64,000 nucleotides of DNA from Alphaproteobacteria bacterium (GTDB taxonomy: Bacteria > Pseudomonadota > Alphaproteobacteria > UBA828). The position numbers and the translations under genes were made by a program. The notes beneath the pieces are model-generated. The model ran no database searches. It was given only the letters and a program-made list of their open reading frames with translations, and had not been told where the DNA came from. Each line of letters begins with the position of its first letter. The first letter of the stretch is position 1. This document shows, piece by piece, positions 54,690-62,793 of this stretch. The stretch spans positions 192,001 through 256,000 of the forward strand of contig CBDEFM010000001.1 in the NCBI GenBank assembly GCA_965237415.1, read 5' to 3'.

Positions 54690-55063
54690 TCAGCCCTTCA
54701 CTGCGCCGAAGGTGAGGCCGCGAACCAGGTAGCGTTTCACAAAGAAAATCAGGACAAGCACCGGCACGCTCTGGAAGATGCAGGCGGCCGCGACCTGCGG
54801 CCACAGACCCTTGGGGTGCCCCACCAGAGACGGGATCATCGCCGTGAACGTGCGGTCCTCGCCTCCCGTGAGGACCAACGCGAACAAAAGCTCGTTCCAG
54901 GAGAATATCAGGACGAAAATGATAACCGCCACCAGTCCCGTGTATGTCATCGGCAACGCGATTTGAAAGAACACGCGAAACGGACCCGCACCGTCGAGAA
55001 AGGCTGCCTCCTCCACCTCCCGAGGGACGTCGTCGAAGAATGATTTCATCATCCAGACCAATA
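54690..55063 (-). pseudogene. 5'-truncated carbohydrate ABC permease
   Basis: WMMKSFFDDVPREVEEAAFLDG...FSWNEL...GLTFGAVKG; homology stops at the IS21 end at 55064. Confidence 0.88.
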
Positions 55064-55200
55064 TGTCAACGGCGGCGAGATTATGTACCGGCGCGGCGGC
55101 GCAAAGTTGTGCCACGGGCTGGGTGGCAGCTTGTCCCTGTAGATCCTATGAGGCGACTCGGCGAGCGGCGCTACGGTGCCGCCGGCCAGGAATCCTCAAC

Positions 55201-56394
55201 ATGAGACACGAGATGCCCCCAAGTAGCGACATCGTCGCGTCGGTCGGCGCGGAGCACAACACGCTGTACGTCGCGATCGAGATAAGCCGGAAGAGTTGGG
55301 TGGTTGGGATCAAGAGCCCGGCGAGTGAGCGGATCGGCCTGCACTCGCTTGCGGCAGCGGACGTCGTAGGTCTTCTGATCGAGCATCAGCAGACCAGGGC
55401 CGAACGCGCGCTCGGCCGTGAAGTGCGTGTTCTGTGCTGTTACGAAGCGGGCTATGAGGGGTTCTGGCTGGCGCGCTGGCTGGACCGAACGATGTCTGTC
55501 GAGACGGTCGTGCTCGATCCTGCGAGCCTTTTGGTGAACCGAAAGGCGAAGCAGCGCAAGACGGATCGGATCGACGCCAGGAAGATGGTGCGCGCGCTGC
55601 TGGCGCACGACCGGGGCGACGCGGCGGTGCTCAGCCGGGTGCGGATACCGAGCGTTGAGGAGGAAGACCGCAAGCGATTGCTCCGGGAGCGCCGGCGCCT
55701 GGTGAAGGAGCGGACATCGCTGACCAACGCGGTCAAAGGGCTCCTGAAGCTGCCCGGCATCTTCGACCTGCAGCCCCGCGCCAAGGGCTTCGAGGCCCGG
55801 TTCGCCGAAGTGAGGACCGCATACGGATCGACGTTCCCGCCGTGGGCCCGGCAGGAGATCCTGCGCCTTGCGGAGCGGTTGTCCCTCGTGGAGCGCCAGA
55901 TCGCGCAGGTCGAGGCCGAGCGCGACGCGATCGTCCGCCAGGGCGAGGCTCTCGCGGTGCCGGTGGCGCCCGAGGGAAGCGATGCGCAGGCGGCGGCGAG
56001 AATGGCGACGCTGACCCGGTTGAAGGGGATCGGCGAGAACGACGCGACCCTGCTGACGCACGAGATCTTCTATCGCGGGTTCCGCAACCGCCGGGAGCTC
56101 GCGAGCTGGGTTGGTATAACGCCAACCCCTTGGGCGAGCGGGGACACGCAACGCGACCAGGGGATCAGCCGTGACGGTCCAGCCTGGATCCGGGCTCAGC
56201 TCGTTCAAATGGCGTGGCGCTGGTTGCGCCATCAGCCAGACAGCGCGCTTAGCAAATGGTTCGAAGACCGAACCGCGGGAGGCCGGGGACGAATCCGTCG
56301 TGTGATGGTCGTAGCGCTCGCCCGCAAGCTGCTCATCGCTCTCTGGCGGTTCTGTGAGACCGGTCTCGTGCCGACAGGCGCCAGGCTCGCCTGA
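55201..56394 (+). CDS. IS110 family (DEDD/RuvC-like) recombinase
   Basis: VAIEIS, CYEAG, KTDRIDA, GITPTPWASG, ALARKL; start 55201 or 55213. Confidence 0.92.
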   Translation: MRHEMPPSSDIVASVGAEHNTLYVAIEISRKSWVVGIKSPASERIGLHSLAAADVVGLLIEHQQTRAERALGREVRVLCCYEAGYEGFWLARWLDRTMSVETVVLDPASLLVNRKAKQRKTDRIDARKMVRALLAHDRGDAAVLSRVRIPSVEEEDRKRLLRERRRLVKERTSLTNAVKGLLKLPGIFDLQPRAKGFEARFAEVRTAYGSTFPPWARQEILRLAERLSLVERQIAQVEAERDAIVRQGEALAVPVAPEGSDAQAAARMATLTRLKGIGENDATLLTHEIFYRGFRNRRELASWVGITPTPWASGDTQRDQGISRDGPAWIRAQLVQMAWRWLRHQPDSALSKWFEDRTAGGRGRIRRVMVVALARKLLIALWRFCETGLVPTGARLA

Positions 56395-56587
56395 TCCTGA
56401 GACCGCACTGTTCCAGTCCGGCCGGACGCGGCCGGCGCTGGGCCGGGTGGTGAGTGGCCGACCGTGGACAGGGCAGAAAGACGCCGCCCCGTAGAAGGGT
56501 CCCGCCTCCGGAACGCTGTGCCCGCAGCAAGCGGGATTGGGGGACGGATCCGGCGCATCGGCGCCGGAAACCGCCCGAATAAAAGTT

Positions 56588-57613
56588 GGCTCAATTCGCG
56601 AATCATATGCGCTACCTCGTCACGGCGGCGGCGAGGCAGGCGCGATCATTGGCGCCGGGGGCGAGGCCGACGAGGTGGAACCAGCTCAGATAGTTGTCCA
56701 GATAGCGGGTGGCGACCCCGCGGCGAGGTCGCAGGAAGTCCTTCCTCCGGCTGTGGCGGCTGTTCACCGTCTGCACATGCAGATCGCCCCGAACCCGTTC
56801 CCCAATCGACCGGTTGAGTGCTTCGTGGCTCACCCCGAGCGCGGCGGCGCACGGCGGGTAGCTCGCGCCGCCGTCGGAGACCAGCAGGGCGTCCCTGGCG
56901 AGCACCGGATCGAGGGCGGCCGTGAGGGCCGTCGCGTCAACCCTGGGCAGCACCGCGCTGAACGTCGTCCCGCTCCGGTCCGCTGCCATGAGAACCGGCA
57001 CCTGCTCGCGCGAGAGGCCACGCTTCTTCGCCTTGCCGCCCCGCCGCCGTGCCTTGCGCCCCAGCTTGCGCGCCCCCTTCCGGCTCTCCAGCACATAGGT
57101 CTCGTCCGCTTCCACGATCCCCTTGAGCACCCCCGAACGATGACGGGCCGCCGCCAGAAACCGATGACGCCAGCGGAACGCCGTGCTCACCGCCACATCG
57201 CAGCGCTCTGCCGACGCCTTCACCGTCTCCCCCTCCGCAAGCGAGGCCCCGAACGACAGCCAGCGCTCCTTGTGGTGCAAGCCCGACAGCGGGGTGCCGG
57301 TTAGCGCGTTGAAGGTCCTGCCGCAGCCTTTGCATTGGTAGCGCCGAAGACCACGTGCCTTGCCCCGTGAAACCGCCCCCTCCCGCGCGCAATGCGGACA
57401 GCGCCGGGCCTCGTCCACAGCGAGTTCGATCGCCGCCTTCGACGCCTCGCCCGTACTCCGGCCAGACAGAACCGCCCAGTGCCTCGCGCCGCTGTGCCCG
57501 CGTCAGCCCGCTCGCCGCCGAAAGCCAGCCCTGAAAATCCTGACTATCCATGACCAAACCTCCTGAGATTCGGGCCATTCTACCAACGATGCGTACGATT
57601 TGCGAATTGAGCC
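56588..57613 (-). mobile_element. IS1595-family element with an 8-bp TSD
   Basis: IRs GGCTCAATTCGCGAATCATATGC and GGCTCAATTCGCAAATCGTACGC; TSD TAAAAGTT at 56580-56587 and 57614-57621. Confidence 0.93.
56612..57551 (-). pseudogene. IS1595 transposase with a +1 frameshift near 57477
   Basis: MDSQDFQGWL...REAL, then frame change to AVLSGRSTGEASKAAIELAVDEARRCPHC; Zn ribbon, VEADETY, SDG, HVQTVNS. Confidence 0.85.
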
Positions 57614-57865
57614 TAAAAGTTGGGCATCCGCACGGTCGTGCGACCCATGCGAGAAGCGTTCCGACCCGGCAAGACGCGCCGCCGATCTGGCCAACCAAAG
57701 GAGACAAGACATGCTCGAGACATAGCGTGCATCGCACCTTGACTTCTGTTGCCTCATAAAAGTCCACGGGAGGGACCCGCGCGCGCGGGTCGACGCGCCC
57801 TGTGCGCGGCTGGCGGCGGCCCGCGCGTGGGTGGGGCCTATGGGCCCACGGGGACAAGCGGGGGG

Positions 57866-58300
57866 TTATTCGGACGGGCGCTGGCGTCGCGATCGGCTCT
57901 GCCTGAGCCGGTAGCTGTCTGCGTTCATCTCCAGGATATGGACATGGTGGGTGATGCGGTCGAGCAGCGCGCCGGTGAGGCGCTCGCTGGCGAAGACCGT
58001 TGTCCATTCCTGGAAGGGCAGGTTTGAGGTCACGATTGTGGCGCCGTTTTCGTAGCGCCGGCTGAAGACGTCGAACAGCAGTTCGCTTCCGGTCTGCGAG
58101 AGGGGCACGTAGCCGAGCTCGTCGACGATCAGGAGATTGACCCTGGCGAGCTGGTCCTGGAGGCGGAGGAGCCTCTTCTCGTCGCGCGCCTCGATCATCT
58201 CGTGGACCAGGTGAGAGGCGGTGGTGAAGCGCACGGAGAGGCCCTTCTGGCAGGCGGCAAGCCCGAGGGCGAGCGCGACATGCGTCTTGCCGACGCCTGA
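57866..58300 (-). pseudogene. istB: istB 3' fragment
   Basis: SGVGKTH, LLIVDELGY, TSNLPF, ALLDRITH. Confidence 0.92.
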
Positions 58301-58302
58301 CG

Positions 58303-58773
58303 GAACAGCCACACACTGCCCGATACCAGGGCGGTCCGACGAAGATCCACTACCCCTTCCACCCCCGCACGGGCCAGCGCGTGGAAGTGGTTCGGCGCCA
58401 CCGCTTCAAGGGGACCATGATCTACGTCGTCCGCCAGCCGGATGGCACGCTGGCGCAGATACCGACCTGGATGTGCTTTCCAGACGCGGCGGCGATGACG
58501 GTGACGGATCAGCCGCGGATCGCGCTGGACGCCCTGCGCGACCTCCGTTCGGACATCGACGCTGTTCTACCATCGCCCTCCCGCATGGATTTGGGAGGGC
58601 GACATGGGAAGACAGGGAGAGCTGTTGGAACTACTGGAGCCGGGTCCGGCACTCACGCCGGCGATGCGAGGGGCGGTAATCCCGATACTGGCGGCGCTGC
58701 TGCTCGAAGCGGCAGCGAACCCGACGGAGGACATGGCGGACGGGACGGCCACGGAGAAGGAGGCGGGCGATGA
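58303..58773 (+). CDS. Small accessory protein of the LSR element (Y4bD/Y4pK/DUF5372-like), open right up to the element end
   Basis: Frame reads EQPHTARYQGGPTKIHYPFHPRTGQRVEVVRRH...PDGTLAQIPTWM; first in-frame start in the integrated state is the GTG at 58381, downstream of the HYPFHP motif. Confidence 0.7.
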   Translation, partial: EQPHTARYQGGPTKIHYPFHPRTGQRVEVVRRHRFKGTMIYVVRQPDGTLAQIPTWMCFPDAAAMTVTDQPRIALDALRDLRSDIDAVLPSPSRMDLGGRHGKTGRAVGTTGAGSGTHAGDARGGNPDTGGAAARSGSEPDGGHGGRDGHGEGGGR

Positions 58774-58789
58774 ACAAGATCGCGCCTGA
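58604..58789 (+). CDS. Second small accessory ORF overlapping the recombinase start
   Basis: GGAGGG RBS; amphipathic ILAALLLEAA with an acidic tail, typical of ORFs preceding these recombinases. Confidence 0.6.
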   Translation: MGRQGELLELLEPGPALTPAMRGAVIPILAALLLEAAANPTEDMADGTATEKEAGDEQDRA

Positions 58790-60829
58790 CCATCTGGCGC
58801 GCGAGGCGGTCGTCTACATTCGGCAGTCGACGCCGGACCAGCTGCGGCACAACCACGAGAGCCGCCGTCGTCAGTACGGCCTTGCGGATCGGGCTCGCGG
58901 TCTGGGCTGGGACGAGCCCGTGATTATCGACGAGGATCTCGGCCGCTCTGGAGGCGGAACGTCGCGGCCGGGCTTCGATCGGCTGCTGCTGGCGATCTGC
59001 GAAGGGCGCGTCGGCATCGTGCTGTCGCTGGAGGCTTCGAGGCTCGCTCGAAACGGCCGCGACTGGCACACGCTGCTGGAGTTCTGCGCGCTTGTGGGCT
59101 GCCTGCTGGGCGACGAGGACGGCTTGTATGATCCTCGCCTGCCGAACGACCGTCTATTGCTGGGTATGAAGGGGACGCTGTCGGAGATGGAGCTCTCGAC
59201 GCTGCGCCAGCGCTCGCTCGAGGCGCTGCGCCTGAAGGCGTCCCGTGGCGAGCTATTCCTCAGCGTCGCGGTGGGCTACGTGAAGGTCCGATGCGACCGG
59301 ATCGCCAAGGATCCCGACCGGCGCGTGCGTGAGGCAATCGATCTCGTGTTCCGCAAGTTCGCGGAGTTCCGGAGCATCCGCCAGGTCCACCTCTGGCTGC
59401 GGCAGGAGGAAGTGCTGCTGCCGGCCGTCAGGATCGTTGGCAAGGAGCGCCATATTGTCTGGAAGCCGCCGGTCTACGGCACCGTCCACAAGCTGATGAC
59501 CAACCCCGTCTACGCCGGCGCGTACGCGTTTGGCCGGACGGAGAGCCGCGTGACCGTCGAGAACGGACGCAAGCGCGTCACGCGCGGCTTTCGCCGCGAT
59601 CGCGCGGACTGGGACGTGTTGATCCGCGATCACCACGAAGGCTACGTTTCCTGGGACGAGTACGAGAGGAACCAGCGTCTGATCGCCGACAACGCCAACT
59701 GCGGGGCTTGATGGCAAGGGGCGCCGTGCGCCGCGGCGATGCGCTGCTCGCGGGCCTGCTGCGCTGCGGACACTGCGGCCGGCGTGTGCACGTCCACTAC
59801 AGCGGCACCAAGGGGTACTGCGTCCGTTACGGCTGCCAAGGCGCGCATGTCAACCACGGCACCAGGCCGTGCATCGCCTTCGGCGGCTTGCGCGTGGATA
59901 CTGCGGTCGGCGATGCAGTGCTGCGACTGCTATCTCCGCTCGGCGTCGAAGCGGCGCTGGCCGCCATCGAGACCCGTGAGAGCGACAACGCCGAGATCCG
60001 ACGGCAGGCGGAGCTGGCGCTGACGCAGGCGCGCTACGAGGCCGATCTGGCACAGCGCCAATACGATGCCGTCGATCCAGCTAACCGCCTTGTCGCGGCC
60101 GAGCTGGAGCGACGGTGGAACGACCGGCTGGCGGATGTGCGCCGGCAGGAGGAGCGGCTCGCCGCCACTGCGGCCGCCCGTCCGGAGGCACCGTCATGCG
60201 CGGAGAAACAGCGCTTGATGGCGCTGGGCGATGATCTCTCGACGGCGTGGTCGCGCCCCGATGCCACCGCCGAGACGCGCAAGGCCATCCTGCGCGCGGT
60301 TCTGGAGGAGATCGTCGTCACGCTGGCCGATGGCTGCGTTGACCTTCTTCTCCACTGGCGTGGCGGCGACCACACGCGTCTGAGCGTGCCGCGCAACCGT
60401 AGGGGACAGCATCGCTGGGCGGCGAGCGCCGAGGTGGTCGACCTGGTTCGCGGACTGGCGAGGCAGCTGCCGGACGGCGCGATCGCGGCCACGCTCAACC
60501 GCCTCGGCAAGAAGACCGGGCGAGGCAACTCGTGGACGGAAGCGCGGGTGCGCACCTTCCGCAATAGCCGTGGCGTTGCCGTCTTCCGATCAGGCGAGAT
60601 GGCGGAGCGGGGCGAGCTGACGCTGACCGATGCCGCCGCACGGCTCGGCATCAGCAAGATGACGGTGCTGCGGTTGATTGCGGGCGGCACAATCGACGCC
60701 ACGCAGGTGTGCAAGGGAGGGCCATGGGCCATCCCGGAGGCGCTGATAGACGCCCTGTACGGCACTGACCTGCGCCAATCGCGCCCGCTAACAGCCGATC
60801 CGAACCAGGAACAGCTGGATTTTCAATAA
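58770..60829 (+). pseudogene. Large serine recombinase split by a 1-nt frameshift at about 59705
   Basis: YIRQS catalytic motif, DLGRSG, RPGF, SRLARN, recombinase domain; second frame carries the CGHC Zn ribbon, coiled coil and C-terminal HTH. Confidence 0.88.
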
Positions 60830-60861
60830 CGTAGCGAGGTGTGCATTATGCACTCGGACTC

Positions 60862-61193
60862 GAGGGCCCGAGCAGGATCGCGTTCTCGCGCCGCTCGATC
60901 CACTCGCAGCGCGCCAACTCCAGCACCTGCGCCTTGTTCAGCGCGGGGATGGCCTTGAAGTCGAAGCTCTCGAGCTGTTTGACGACGGGGAACCTGGCCT
61001 GCCTGATGCGCCGCTCGACCAGGCGGCGCTCGCGGTCGATCATCTCCAGCTCCACCAGCCGGGCCAGGAACCGCACATGATCCAGCCCCTCGGCCGTGCA
61101 CTGGCGCGCCAGTTTCTCGTACTCGCGCAGAAAGGTCGGCAGCTTCAATCTCTTCAGGTGATGCTCGAGCAGGATGCGGGGGGCCTCAGCCAT
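60862..61193 (-). pseudogene. istB: istB 5' fragment
   Basis: LKRLKLP, ARFP, FDF, ending at LLGPS. Confidence 0.92.
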
Positions 61194-62682
61194 GGCCGGC
61201 GGCCAGCAGGGTGGCGTAATCGGCGCTACGGGTGGCGGCGACGAAGGGCTGGGGGAGGTGCGGATAGCGTGTCAGGTCGAGACGGGCCGGCCGCTTCTCG
61301 ATGCGCGCCAGCAGCAGGTGCTTGACCGCATCGAAGCCGATCACGCGCCGCTTCACCGCGTCCTGCACCGCGGCCGTCACCTGGCGCTCCGGAAAGTCCT
61401 CCAGCAGGCGCAGCACCTGGATGTATTCGCGCTTGCCGCGCGGCCCGAAGCGGGCTTCGAGGAGGCGGCGCAGCGTGTCGAAGGCCGGATCGAGCTTCCA
61501 CCCCCGCAGCGGCGCCGCCTGGTCCAGGGCGCCCGGCTTCCTCTCCAGCAACGACAGATAGTGCAGCGGGTCGTAGACGACGTCGCCGCGGACATAGGAG
61601 CGCCTATGGCGGGCGACGATCTCGGCGCCGAGCGCGATCTCGACCCGGTCGACATAGCCCTTGACCGTCACCTTCTTGTGGGCGTGCACCGCCGGCGCCG
61701 AGTAGTCCACCAGCCGGTAGCGCACCAGGGCCGTCGACGAGACCTGGCCCGGCACATGCTCGCAGGCCTCGAAGGGGACGGCGGGCAGATCGCGCAGGGC
61801 GTCGAGATCGGCGAGCAACGCCGCCGCCTGGTCGCCTGCCTCCAGCGCGTCGAGCCGCTCCAGGCAGCGCGCCATCAGCCGCTCGTTCAGGACCGACAGG
61901 TCGTGCACCTTCGGGATCGGCACCATGAACCGGCGCCGTGCCGTCTTCACCAGGGCCTCCACCTTCCCCTTGTCGTTGCCTTTGCCGGGCCGGCCGAAGC
62001 GGTCGCGGAACAGGTAGTGCGACTGAAGATGTGAGAACGCCTGCGTCCTGCGGCGCGTGCCGTCCCCCAGGATCCGCGCCACCGCAAGGGTGGTGTTGTC
62101 GTAGAGGATCGAGCGCGGAACCCCGCCGAGGAAGGCGAAGGCGCTGACATGGCCGTCGAGGAAGGCCTCGGTCGTCTCCCTCGGATAGGCCTTGACGAAC
62201 CAGACATTGGAATGGGGCAGGATCAGGCAGAAGAAGGCGACCTTCTCCCGCTGCCCCCGCAGCTCCACCACCGCCTCGCCGAAGTCGACCTGGGCATGGC
62301 CCGGCGGGTGATGCAGTGGAACGAAGGCCTCGCGCGTCGATTGCCGCCGGGAACGCACATAGTCCTTCACGATGGTATAGCCGCCGGTGAACCCGTACTC
62401 GTCCCGCAGCCGCTCGAAGATCCGGTGCGCCGTGTGGCGCTGCTTGCGCGGCACATCCGGATCCGTGTCCGCCTCCAGGATCGCGTCGACGATGCCGGTG
62501 AACCCGTCCAGCTTGGGCCGCCTGACCGGCTTCGTCCGGCGGTAGCCCGGCGGCGCCGAGTAGCTCAGCATCTTCTTCACCGTGCGACGGTCGATGCCGA
62601 ACCGACGGCCCGCCTCGTGATGGCTCAAACCCTCGTCGACAACCGCCAGTCGAACCGCCGCATAGAGCTCCACGCCGTACAT
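61186..62682 (-). CDS. istA: IS21 transposase IstA
   Basis: HTH, AQVDFG, YDNT, KGKVE DDE motifs, KPGAL; ATG at 62682. Confidence 0.93.
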   Translation of the reverse strand: MYGVELYAAVRLAVVDEGLSHHEAGRRFGIDRRTVKKMLSYSAPPGYRRTKPVRRPKLDGFTGIVDAILEADTDPDVPRKQRHTAHRIFERLRDEYGFTGGYTIVKDYVRSRRQSTREAFVPLHHPPGHAQVDFGEAVVELRGQREKVAFFCLILPHSNVWFVKAYPRETTEAFLDGHVSAFAFLGGVPRSILYDNTTLAVARILGDGTRRRTQAFSHLQSHYLFRDRFGRPGKGNDKGKVEALVKTARRRFMVPIPKVHDLSVLNERLMARCLERLDALEAGDQAAALLADLDALRDLPAVPFEACEHVPGQVSSTALVRYRLVDYSAPAVHAHKKVTVKGYVDRVEIALGAEIVARHRRSYVRGDVVYDPLHYLSLLERKPGALDQAAPLRGWKLDPAFDTLRRLLEARFGPRGKREYIQVLRLLEDFPERQVTAAVQDAVKRRVIGFDAVKHLLLARIEKRPARLDLTRYPHLPQPFVAATRSADYATLLAAGHG

Positions 62683-62793
62683 CCCCCGCCCCTCGTCGCA
62701 ACCGACAAAGGACCATGGTTGGCGCATTTTTGCGCCGCCGCGACCGGACCGTCCGGTCGCTCCGCGTGGAGCATTATTCCTCCGCCGTTAACA

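Follow-up and report, generated by a model that had tools for sequence, protein, structure and literature searches.

An IS1111-type insertion sequence with a predicted guide RNA for a site inside the end of an IS21-family element

We analysed a 64,000-nucleotide stretch of an alphaproteobacterial genome (contig CBDEFM010000001.1, positions 192,001 to 256,000; hereafter the window), in which an IS110-family element of the IS1111 type lies inside the end of an IS21-family element. The favoured reading, to which we assign a probability of about 0.9, is that this is an RNA-guided IS1111-type element whose guide would specify the site in the IS21 end at which it is found. Such an RNA-guided recombinase had been proposed in an earlier sequence-only reading of the window, and four lines of evidence now support the proposal: the guides covary with the flanking DNA, the donor guides covary with the ends of the element, the RNA region has a covarying fold, and the same IS21 site is used repeatedly in one orientation. 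The coordinates of all features are collected in Table 1.

The boundaries of the element were established by comparison with relatives and empty sites. Relatives were collected in a scan of one genome per species, which returned 80 loci. The left end (AG followed by ATCCTATGAGG) and the right end (CTTGAC, about 10 nt, CCTCATAAA and then AG) are conserved in about 25 of them. In the window, the left junction reads TTGTCCCTGT-AG-ATCC (55131-55146) and the right junction CATAAA-AG-TCCACGG (57755-57769), so that the AG core occurs once at each junction (55141-2 and 57761-2). The genome also contains three copies of the IS21 end that are uninterrupted, and these run as ...GTCCGCGT-AG-TCCA..., with a single AG. 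Contigs of two public runs (X14 and X1) link 55140 directly to 57761; because the shorter side of this joint has just 25 letters, it gives the boundaries weak support, and it may come from any empty IS21 end. The element is 1584 bp long once a nested insertion is subtracted, with a left end of 58 bp and a non-coding right end of 332 bp. The subterminal inverted repeats, both of which co-vary in L027 and L032, were assigned by direct reading and from the relatives, because the 11-nt repeat is not among the 25 longest pairs of the inverted-repeat finder. No close DNA relative was found by blastn against the plasmid collection, in which seven records matched with 60-80% identity over at most 21% of the query. 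A TTGAC(T/A) hexamer near the right end and a -10 box GATCCT formed across the joined ends, separated by a 17-nt spacer, would fit a promoter at the junction of an excised circle.

The region downstream of the recombinase gene is predicted to encode a non-coding RNA of about 200 nt, and an alignment of the last 400 nt of the relatives displays a conserved scaffold with variable slots. All strings and coordinates of the sequence-only reading were located in the window as given, and its two target guides (56462-69 and 56487-94) were borne out by the comparison it had proposed, that of guide positions with the insertion sites of homologs. Guide matches were counted in 20 loci with both ends, which remained from 37 candidate left ends after those lacking a scaffold match or a right end followed by 12 flank bases were removed. 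L009, L013, L014, L020, L021, L023, L029, L039, L043, L046, L047, L051, L053, L061 and L075 were left out owing to contig ends, internal insertions or diverged scaffolds. For permutation, nine representatives with distinct targets were chosen greedily, each differing in at least three of six left-flank positions. The left-target guide agrees with the flank at 45 of 54 positions (permuted mean 16.8, maximum 38), a value reached in none of 20,000 permutations. For the right-target guide, 43 of 63 positions agree in a fixed register (permuted mean 20.9, maximum 44; 1 of 20,000 reaches it) and 60 of 63 in the best register (permuted mean 39.6, maximum 57; 0 of 20,000). The right-target guide matches at 7/7 positions in the window and, in the fixed register, at 6/7 or more in 15 of the 20 loci. 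A relative with 51% identity occupies 21 distinct sites in one genome; the consensus of their right flanks fits its right-target guide, and agreement of their left flanks with the left-target guide is limited to the final 2-4 bases. Chance occurrence was also estimated. Three 7-8-mers are found 4, 1 and 3 times on both strands of the window (shuffle means 3.6, 1.1 and 0.6), and each is therefore expected about 0.002-0.01 times in the 332-nt non-coding region. A stronger test of the predicted guides is whether they covary across relatives, and it was passed.

ATAAAAG at 56579-85 was correctly recognized as a donor guide by the sequence-only reading: in 18 of the 20 loci it reproduces the right end plus core exactly, and the remaining two deviate only in the right-hand core copy. 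The right-end variants AAA, AAG, ATA and ACA are each matched exactly by this guide, and a fifth variant occurs in ISRel9. The other donor guide had been placed at GGATC (56546-50) and has to be moved. That slot is the base of a variable hairpin stem and reads ATCC, CTCC, AACC, GTCA, AGCC and so on in 16 relatives with an identical left end, and the 5-mer performs no better than chance as a guide. GGAT(TG) at 56534-39 takes its place. The slot is invariant (GGGAT, 56533-37) in the 16 aligned relatives sharing one left end, and it changes along with the left end in more distant relatives whose ends differ (ATCC/GGAT, ATTC/GAAT, ATT/AAT, ATGCC/GGCAT, and ATCCC/GGGAT in ISRel9).

The consensus fold, computed with RNAalifold from 16 distinct sequences, consists of an outer long-range helix (GCCGGGT 56442-48 with ACCCGGC 57664-70), a target-loop stem, a second long-range helix (CGGAACGCT 56509-17 with AGCGTTCCG 57655-63), a donor-loop inner stem and a 3' hairpin, and a small invariant hairpin lies between the two target guides. 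Of its 45 pairs, with 96.8% of cells paired, 12 are changed on both sides; the shuffled alignments gave a mean of 5.6 compensatory pairs (0/500 reached 12) and slid controls gave 1-5. Both long-range helices foreseen from the window alone are recovered by the consensus. A covariance model (R1) built from the alignment of the 16 relatives, as the sequence-only reading had suggested, detects the RNA in 76 of the 80 loci, immediately 3' of the gene, and reaches relatives with 51% protein identity; no match was obtained in L014, L026, L041 and L051. The model also matches ISRel9 with 38.7 bits. A search of Rfam gave no match on the window and just two chance-level matches on L008, a relative with an intact RNA gene. 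In one locus, L011, part of the sequence is duplicated in tandem, and the RNA is present twice. The window itself is alone in having A at 56475, in the loop of the invariant small hairpin, where environmental contigs and all relatives have T (GGGCTGAAAG). The environmental contigs further have A at 56464, giving the guide variant CCATGGAC, which is also found in L009 and L047.

The recombinase shows the domain organization of the IS110 family, with an N-terminal RuvC-like DEDD domain (PF01548, 31 bits against a cut-off of 29, profile positions 42-151 only) and a C-terminal domain (PF02371, 54 bits) with the S-G motif. The motif G-x-x-P-x-x-x-x-S-G, present as GITPTPWASG, is conserved in an alignment of nine sequences, in which the acidic residues of AIEIS, YEAGYEG and KTDRIDA are invariant. 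Judged by alignment position alone, the first acidic residue is apparently Glu (AIEIS) in all nine. In this alignment the window protein lacks two residues and carries two substitutions at otherwise conserved positions, all of them private to it, and the start Met of its relatives corresponds to 55213. A total of 7387 relatives were found at E <= 0.001, and those among the 120 matches listed are mostly about 395 aa long. Resemblance to solved structures is confined to the C-terminal domain (ISCro4, E 1.2e-5; IS621, E 7e-4). In four copies of one genome (L034-L037, element 1438 bp), the recombinase is devoid of about 36 aligned residues including the S-G motif. In these deletion derivatives the RNA is intact and the right-target guide fits its flank perfectly, and they may be non-autonomous and moved in trans.

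The occupancy of IS21 ends shows that the same site is used repeatedly. Seven IS21 termini of the relevant type are present in the genome of the window, of which three are occupied, three are empty and one is divergent. The three occupied ends carry their guests at the same position and in the same orientation, and one of these guests is a relative with 75% identity. Elsewhere, the same site is occupied in L008, L009, L010, L029 and L047; L029 and L047 belong to one genome, and in each the recombinase gene is cut by an insertion of about 1.3 kb. The IS21 copies vary at two left-flank positions (CCCTGT, CCCCGT, CCGCGT), and the window's guide CCCCGT is perfect to the flanks of two occupied copies (C2:1588046, L009). 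A different kind of target is found in L021 and L032-L037, which lie in a short palindromic repeat (..GCTACTC-AG-GGTGAGG.., with its reverse complement about 30 nt further) that looks REP- or MITE-like; the hosts of this sub-clade are Alphaproteobacteria and a Vicinamibacteraceae genome.

These observations would fit the following scheme. The recombinase would be guided by the RNA of about 200 nt encoded just after its gene, through two internal loops. In the donor loop, GGAT would pair with the left end, and ATAAAAG would have the same sense as the right end and core. Through the pairings of the donor and target loops, the excised circle, in which the two ends meet at AG, would come to lie at ..CCCCGT-AG-TCCACGG.., and the element would then be inserted in a single orientation by recombination at the AG core, 78 bp inside the IS21 end next to istB. 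From IS621, ISEc11, ISKpn4 and ISPa11, we infer that the RNA is made, bound by the recombinase and required.

Several points weigh against this scheme. The right-target guide is shifted by 1-2 nt in 4 of the 20 loci (L012, L016, L018, L032), and in L019 it matches no better than expected by chance. A mismatch is usual at position 1 of the 8-nt left-target slot, which speaks against a perfect code, and L028 and L054 are exceptions to the right-donor guide. The left-target guide has one mismatch to its own flank in the window and two in L008 and L010. In the window this single mismatch had been taken as tolerance by the recombinase, and a later mutation of the flank or of the guide would look alike. 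Single-sequence minimum-energy folds disagree with the consensus and pair the right-target guide with the 3' hairpin; they were set aside, and the consensus, which covariation supports, was relied upon. A scan of the intact linear element for sigma-70 promoters and intrinsic terminators returned 0 sites. Contigs from RNA libraries (X14, X16) may derive from DNA in the library and are no proof of transcription. Finally, the recombinase, at 395-397 aa, exceeds the 330-350 aa given for IS1111-family enzymes in the account of Siddiquee et al. (PMC11187229).

The copy in the window is very probably an inactive relic. An IS1595-type element inserted directly after the left-donor guide has cut the guides off from the 3' halves of the two closing helices, and the covariance model finds no intact RNA gene in the genome, only the two pieces in the window (141 and 26.8 bits); the remaining copies of the element in the genome are truncated. 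Because its RNA gene is split and an intact copy is absent from the genome, the window's copy is probably dead. Contigs without the IS1595-type insertion occur in one DNA run (X1) and two RNA-library runs (X14, X16) and skip exactly 1034 bp, and therefore a version with an intact RNA exists in nature at the same IS21 site; parts of the nested insertion without contig cover carry no information. We consider it unlikely that the copy is still mobile, either with RNA provided in trans or with functional halves of the split RNA. The recombinase frame is open, and copies with an intact RNA, about 98-99% identical, are found in environmental samples and in another genome (L008, L010). Set against this are the 1026 bp now separating the guides from both closing helices, the missing second RNA copy, and the private deletion and substitutions of the recombinase.

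A further alternative, a shade less probable than continued mobility, is that the repeated occupancy reflects an IS21 moving with a passenger inside and not targeted insertion. Since IS21 is mobile and multi-copy, a guest 78 bp inside its end would travel along. However, the two closest guests in the genome are 98% identical (602/615) and their IS21 ends 90% (71/79); the guests are more alike than their hosts and have therefore arrived separately, not by carriage alone. The guide slots match the site, and a lineage of 75-79% identity (C2:3592394, L029) sits at the same IS21 site with the same right-target guide. Targeting and co-transposition may both contribute. The weakest alternative, site choice by the protein alone with the RNA-like matches as a by-product or with the region acting as DNA, is very improbable, given that the four slots covary with four DNA partners, that the scaffold between them keeps a covarying fold, and that family relatives need the RNA in experiments (PMC11187229, PMC11208160). 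RNA-guided insertion into the IS21 end is hence the reading we prefer.

Table 1 Features of the nested elements in the window.
Feature	Position	Strand	Basis or remark
IS110-family, IS1111-type element	55143..57760	+	Ends kept in ~25 relatives with differing flanks; empty sites
Left target flank TTGTCCCTGT + left AG core copy (55141-2)	55131..55142	+	78-79 bp inside IS21 end
Right AG core copy + right target flank TCCACGG	57761..57769	+	Direct reading; empty-site comparison
Left subterminal inverted repeat TATGAGGCGAC	55147..55157	+	10/11 match to 57748-57758
Recombinase gene, 397 aa	55201..56394	+	Pfam DEDD_Tnp_IS110 + Transposase_20
5' part of predicted bridge/seek RNA gene	56437..56587	+	Covariance model R1, 141 bits; holds outer helix, target-binding loop, right-donor guide, inner hairpin, left-donor guide
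Right-target guide slot	56461..56470	+	CCGTGGAC (56462-69) complementary to core G + TCCACGG (57762-69)
Left-target guide slot CCCCGT + core AG (CCCCGTAG)	56487..56494	+	Same sense as left flank + core
Right-donor guide GGAT (56534-37) + core-slot bases TG	56534..56539	+	Complementary to left end ATCC
Distal hairpin of donor-binding loop	56550..56567 (56550-56 / 56561-67)	+	Sequence differs among relatives
Left-donor guide ATAAAAG	56579..56585	+	Last 5 right-end bases + core AG
3' part of predicted RNA gene	57622..57673	+	3' hairpin + 3' strands of closing helices (57655-63, 57664-70)
TTGACT, candidate -35 box of circle-junction promoter	57739..57744	+	CTTGAC invariant in 20/20 elements, fixed distance to end
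Nested IS1595-type insertion	56588-57613	-	Pfam DDE_Tnp_IS1595; 23-nt inverted repeats
Host IS21-family element	55064..62793	-	Pfam, termini; contains all nested insertions
istA	62727-61186	-	Pfam rve + Mu-transpos_C_2
istB N-part	61193-60846	-	Pfam IstB_IS21
istB C-part	58312-57866	-	Pfam IstB_IS21
Serine-recombinase element splitting istB	58313-60845 (~2.5 kb); ORFs 58770-59711, 59708-60829	+	Interrupts at IstB profile position ~100

Four mobile elements are stacked within the window, with the IS21-family element outermost. The host shows the organization of the IS21 family, with istA (rve-type) followed by istB (AAA+ IstB) inside terminal inverted repeats; its terminus reads TGTCAACGGCGGCG at 55064 and is imperfectly inverted at 62780-93. 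The IS110-family element splits the istB-proximal end 78-79 bp from the tip. Within istB, the two pieces flanking the second guest join at position ~100 of the Pfam IstB_IS21 profile. The large serine recombinase that this guest encodes (58770-60829) contains Resolvase, Recombinase, Zn_ribbon_recom and HTH_17 domains, and its gene is probably frameshifted because it occupies two overlapping frames. The IS1595-type insertion is flanked by an 8-bp target duplication TAAAAGTT at 56580-87 and 57614-21. Its transposase gene (56612-57553, minus strand) has an in-frame stop between the likely start at 57553 and a 268-aa open reading frame, and relatives with 70-98% identity are located elsewhere in the same genome. 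At the outer flanks of the IS21 (55063/55064 and 62793/62794), no matching target duplication is found (left ..CCAATA, right CGGGGG..), and the adjoining gene on the left, for an ABC-transporter permease, is truncated (54690-55115, minus strand); together these suggest a rearrangement at the window's IS21.

The IS21 end joins the mobile-element sites that serve as safe, multi-copy and horizontally travelling landing pads. A literature search on IS110-family elements targeting IS21 found nothing specific, which does not prove absence in print. For the guide code of IS1111-type elements, the relatives also amount to a natural data set with internal controls, comprising four slots on one scaffold, no fewer than nine clearly distinct targets and five variants of the donor end. 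The exceptions, namely the register shifts of the right-target guide and the weak left-target matches of the element at 21 sites, bear on how strictly the guides are read. The general picture of bridge/seek systems is unchanged, and the window's copy is probably a relic. Two branches of the element, 75-79% and 97% identical, keep the same IS21 site. Tentatively, and with more doubt than belief, we consider that the relatives form a distinct, uncatalogued ISRel9-like clade of IS1111-type bridge recombinases, one lineage of which is a long-term IS21-end specialist. On that view, the element would be an insertion sequence living in another insertion sequence, spreading with IS21 and possibly disabling it. 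The clade may be characterized by an enzyme of about 395 aa whose first catalytic residue is Glu, by a 200-nt RNA that Rfam does not contain, and by a very clean four-slot code that nature may have rewritten for at least a dozen targets.

ISRel9, a name given by RefSeq annotation to an element on a Rhizobium phaseoli plasmid (L090), is the closest named relative, with 39% protein identity over the full length. It shares the RNA family, the AG core, the slot layout and the type of ends, and differs in its target (..GGCTTT-AG-CTTTCTC..) and its right-end variant (CATGTG). A literature search for ISRel9 found nothing, which does not prove absence in print. IS4321 and IS5075 of the IS1111 family reportedly target the 38-bp inverted repeats of the Tn21 family. 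They are likewise site-specific in the terminal repeats of another transposon, with a Tn21-family host there and an IS21-family end here, so that landing in another transposon's end has precedent in the family.

IS1111-group elements are described as having longer subterminal repeats (7-17 bp) and long right ends, in which bridge RNAs were predicted for 93% of the catalogued IS1111s (Durrant et al. 2024, PMC11208160). Siddiquee et al. (2024, PMC11187229) describe the seekRNAs of IS1111-family elements as encoded downstream of the gene with the top-strand match first, subterminal repeats of usually 11-13 bp, and a promoter formed at the circle junction. The present element has subterminal repeats matching at 10/11 positions, a long right end with the RNA region and a short left end. 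Its right-target guide (56462-69) precedes the left-target guide (56487-94), a layout kept in all aligned relatives, and its guides, which covary with the flanks and with its own ends, lie in internal loops of a conserved fold, as in bridge/seek RNAs. With ISEc11, ISKpn4, ISPst6 and ISPa11 as presented in PMC11187229, it shares the RNA downstream of the gene, the subterminal repeats, the single orientation and the specific site. The top-strand match likewise lies 5' of the bottom-strand match, and a junction promoter would be expected. Compared with these seekRNA elements, the terminal extensions measure 4-6 bp (left) and 2-4 bp (right), according to how the core is counted, versus 7 and 3, an IS21 end serves as the target, the enzyme is longer, and the RNA is modelled at about 200 nt with a donor loop, whereas the abundant seekRNA is 70-100 nt. 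The two-loop bridge RNA described for IS621 (PMC11208160; structures 8wt6 etc.) is similar in having two internal loops that both carry a guide for each DNA strand, and in specifying donor and target separately. In contrast to IS621, the RNA here is in the right end and not the left, the guides follow the opposite order in both loops, AG serves as the core, protein likeness is limited to the C-terminal domain, and an Rfam match is absent. In conclusion, the element belongs to the IS110 family and represents a known type of system, and its target, the end of an IS21, is a new example.

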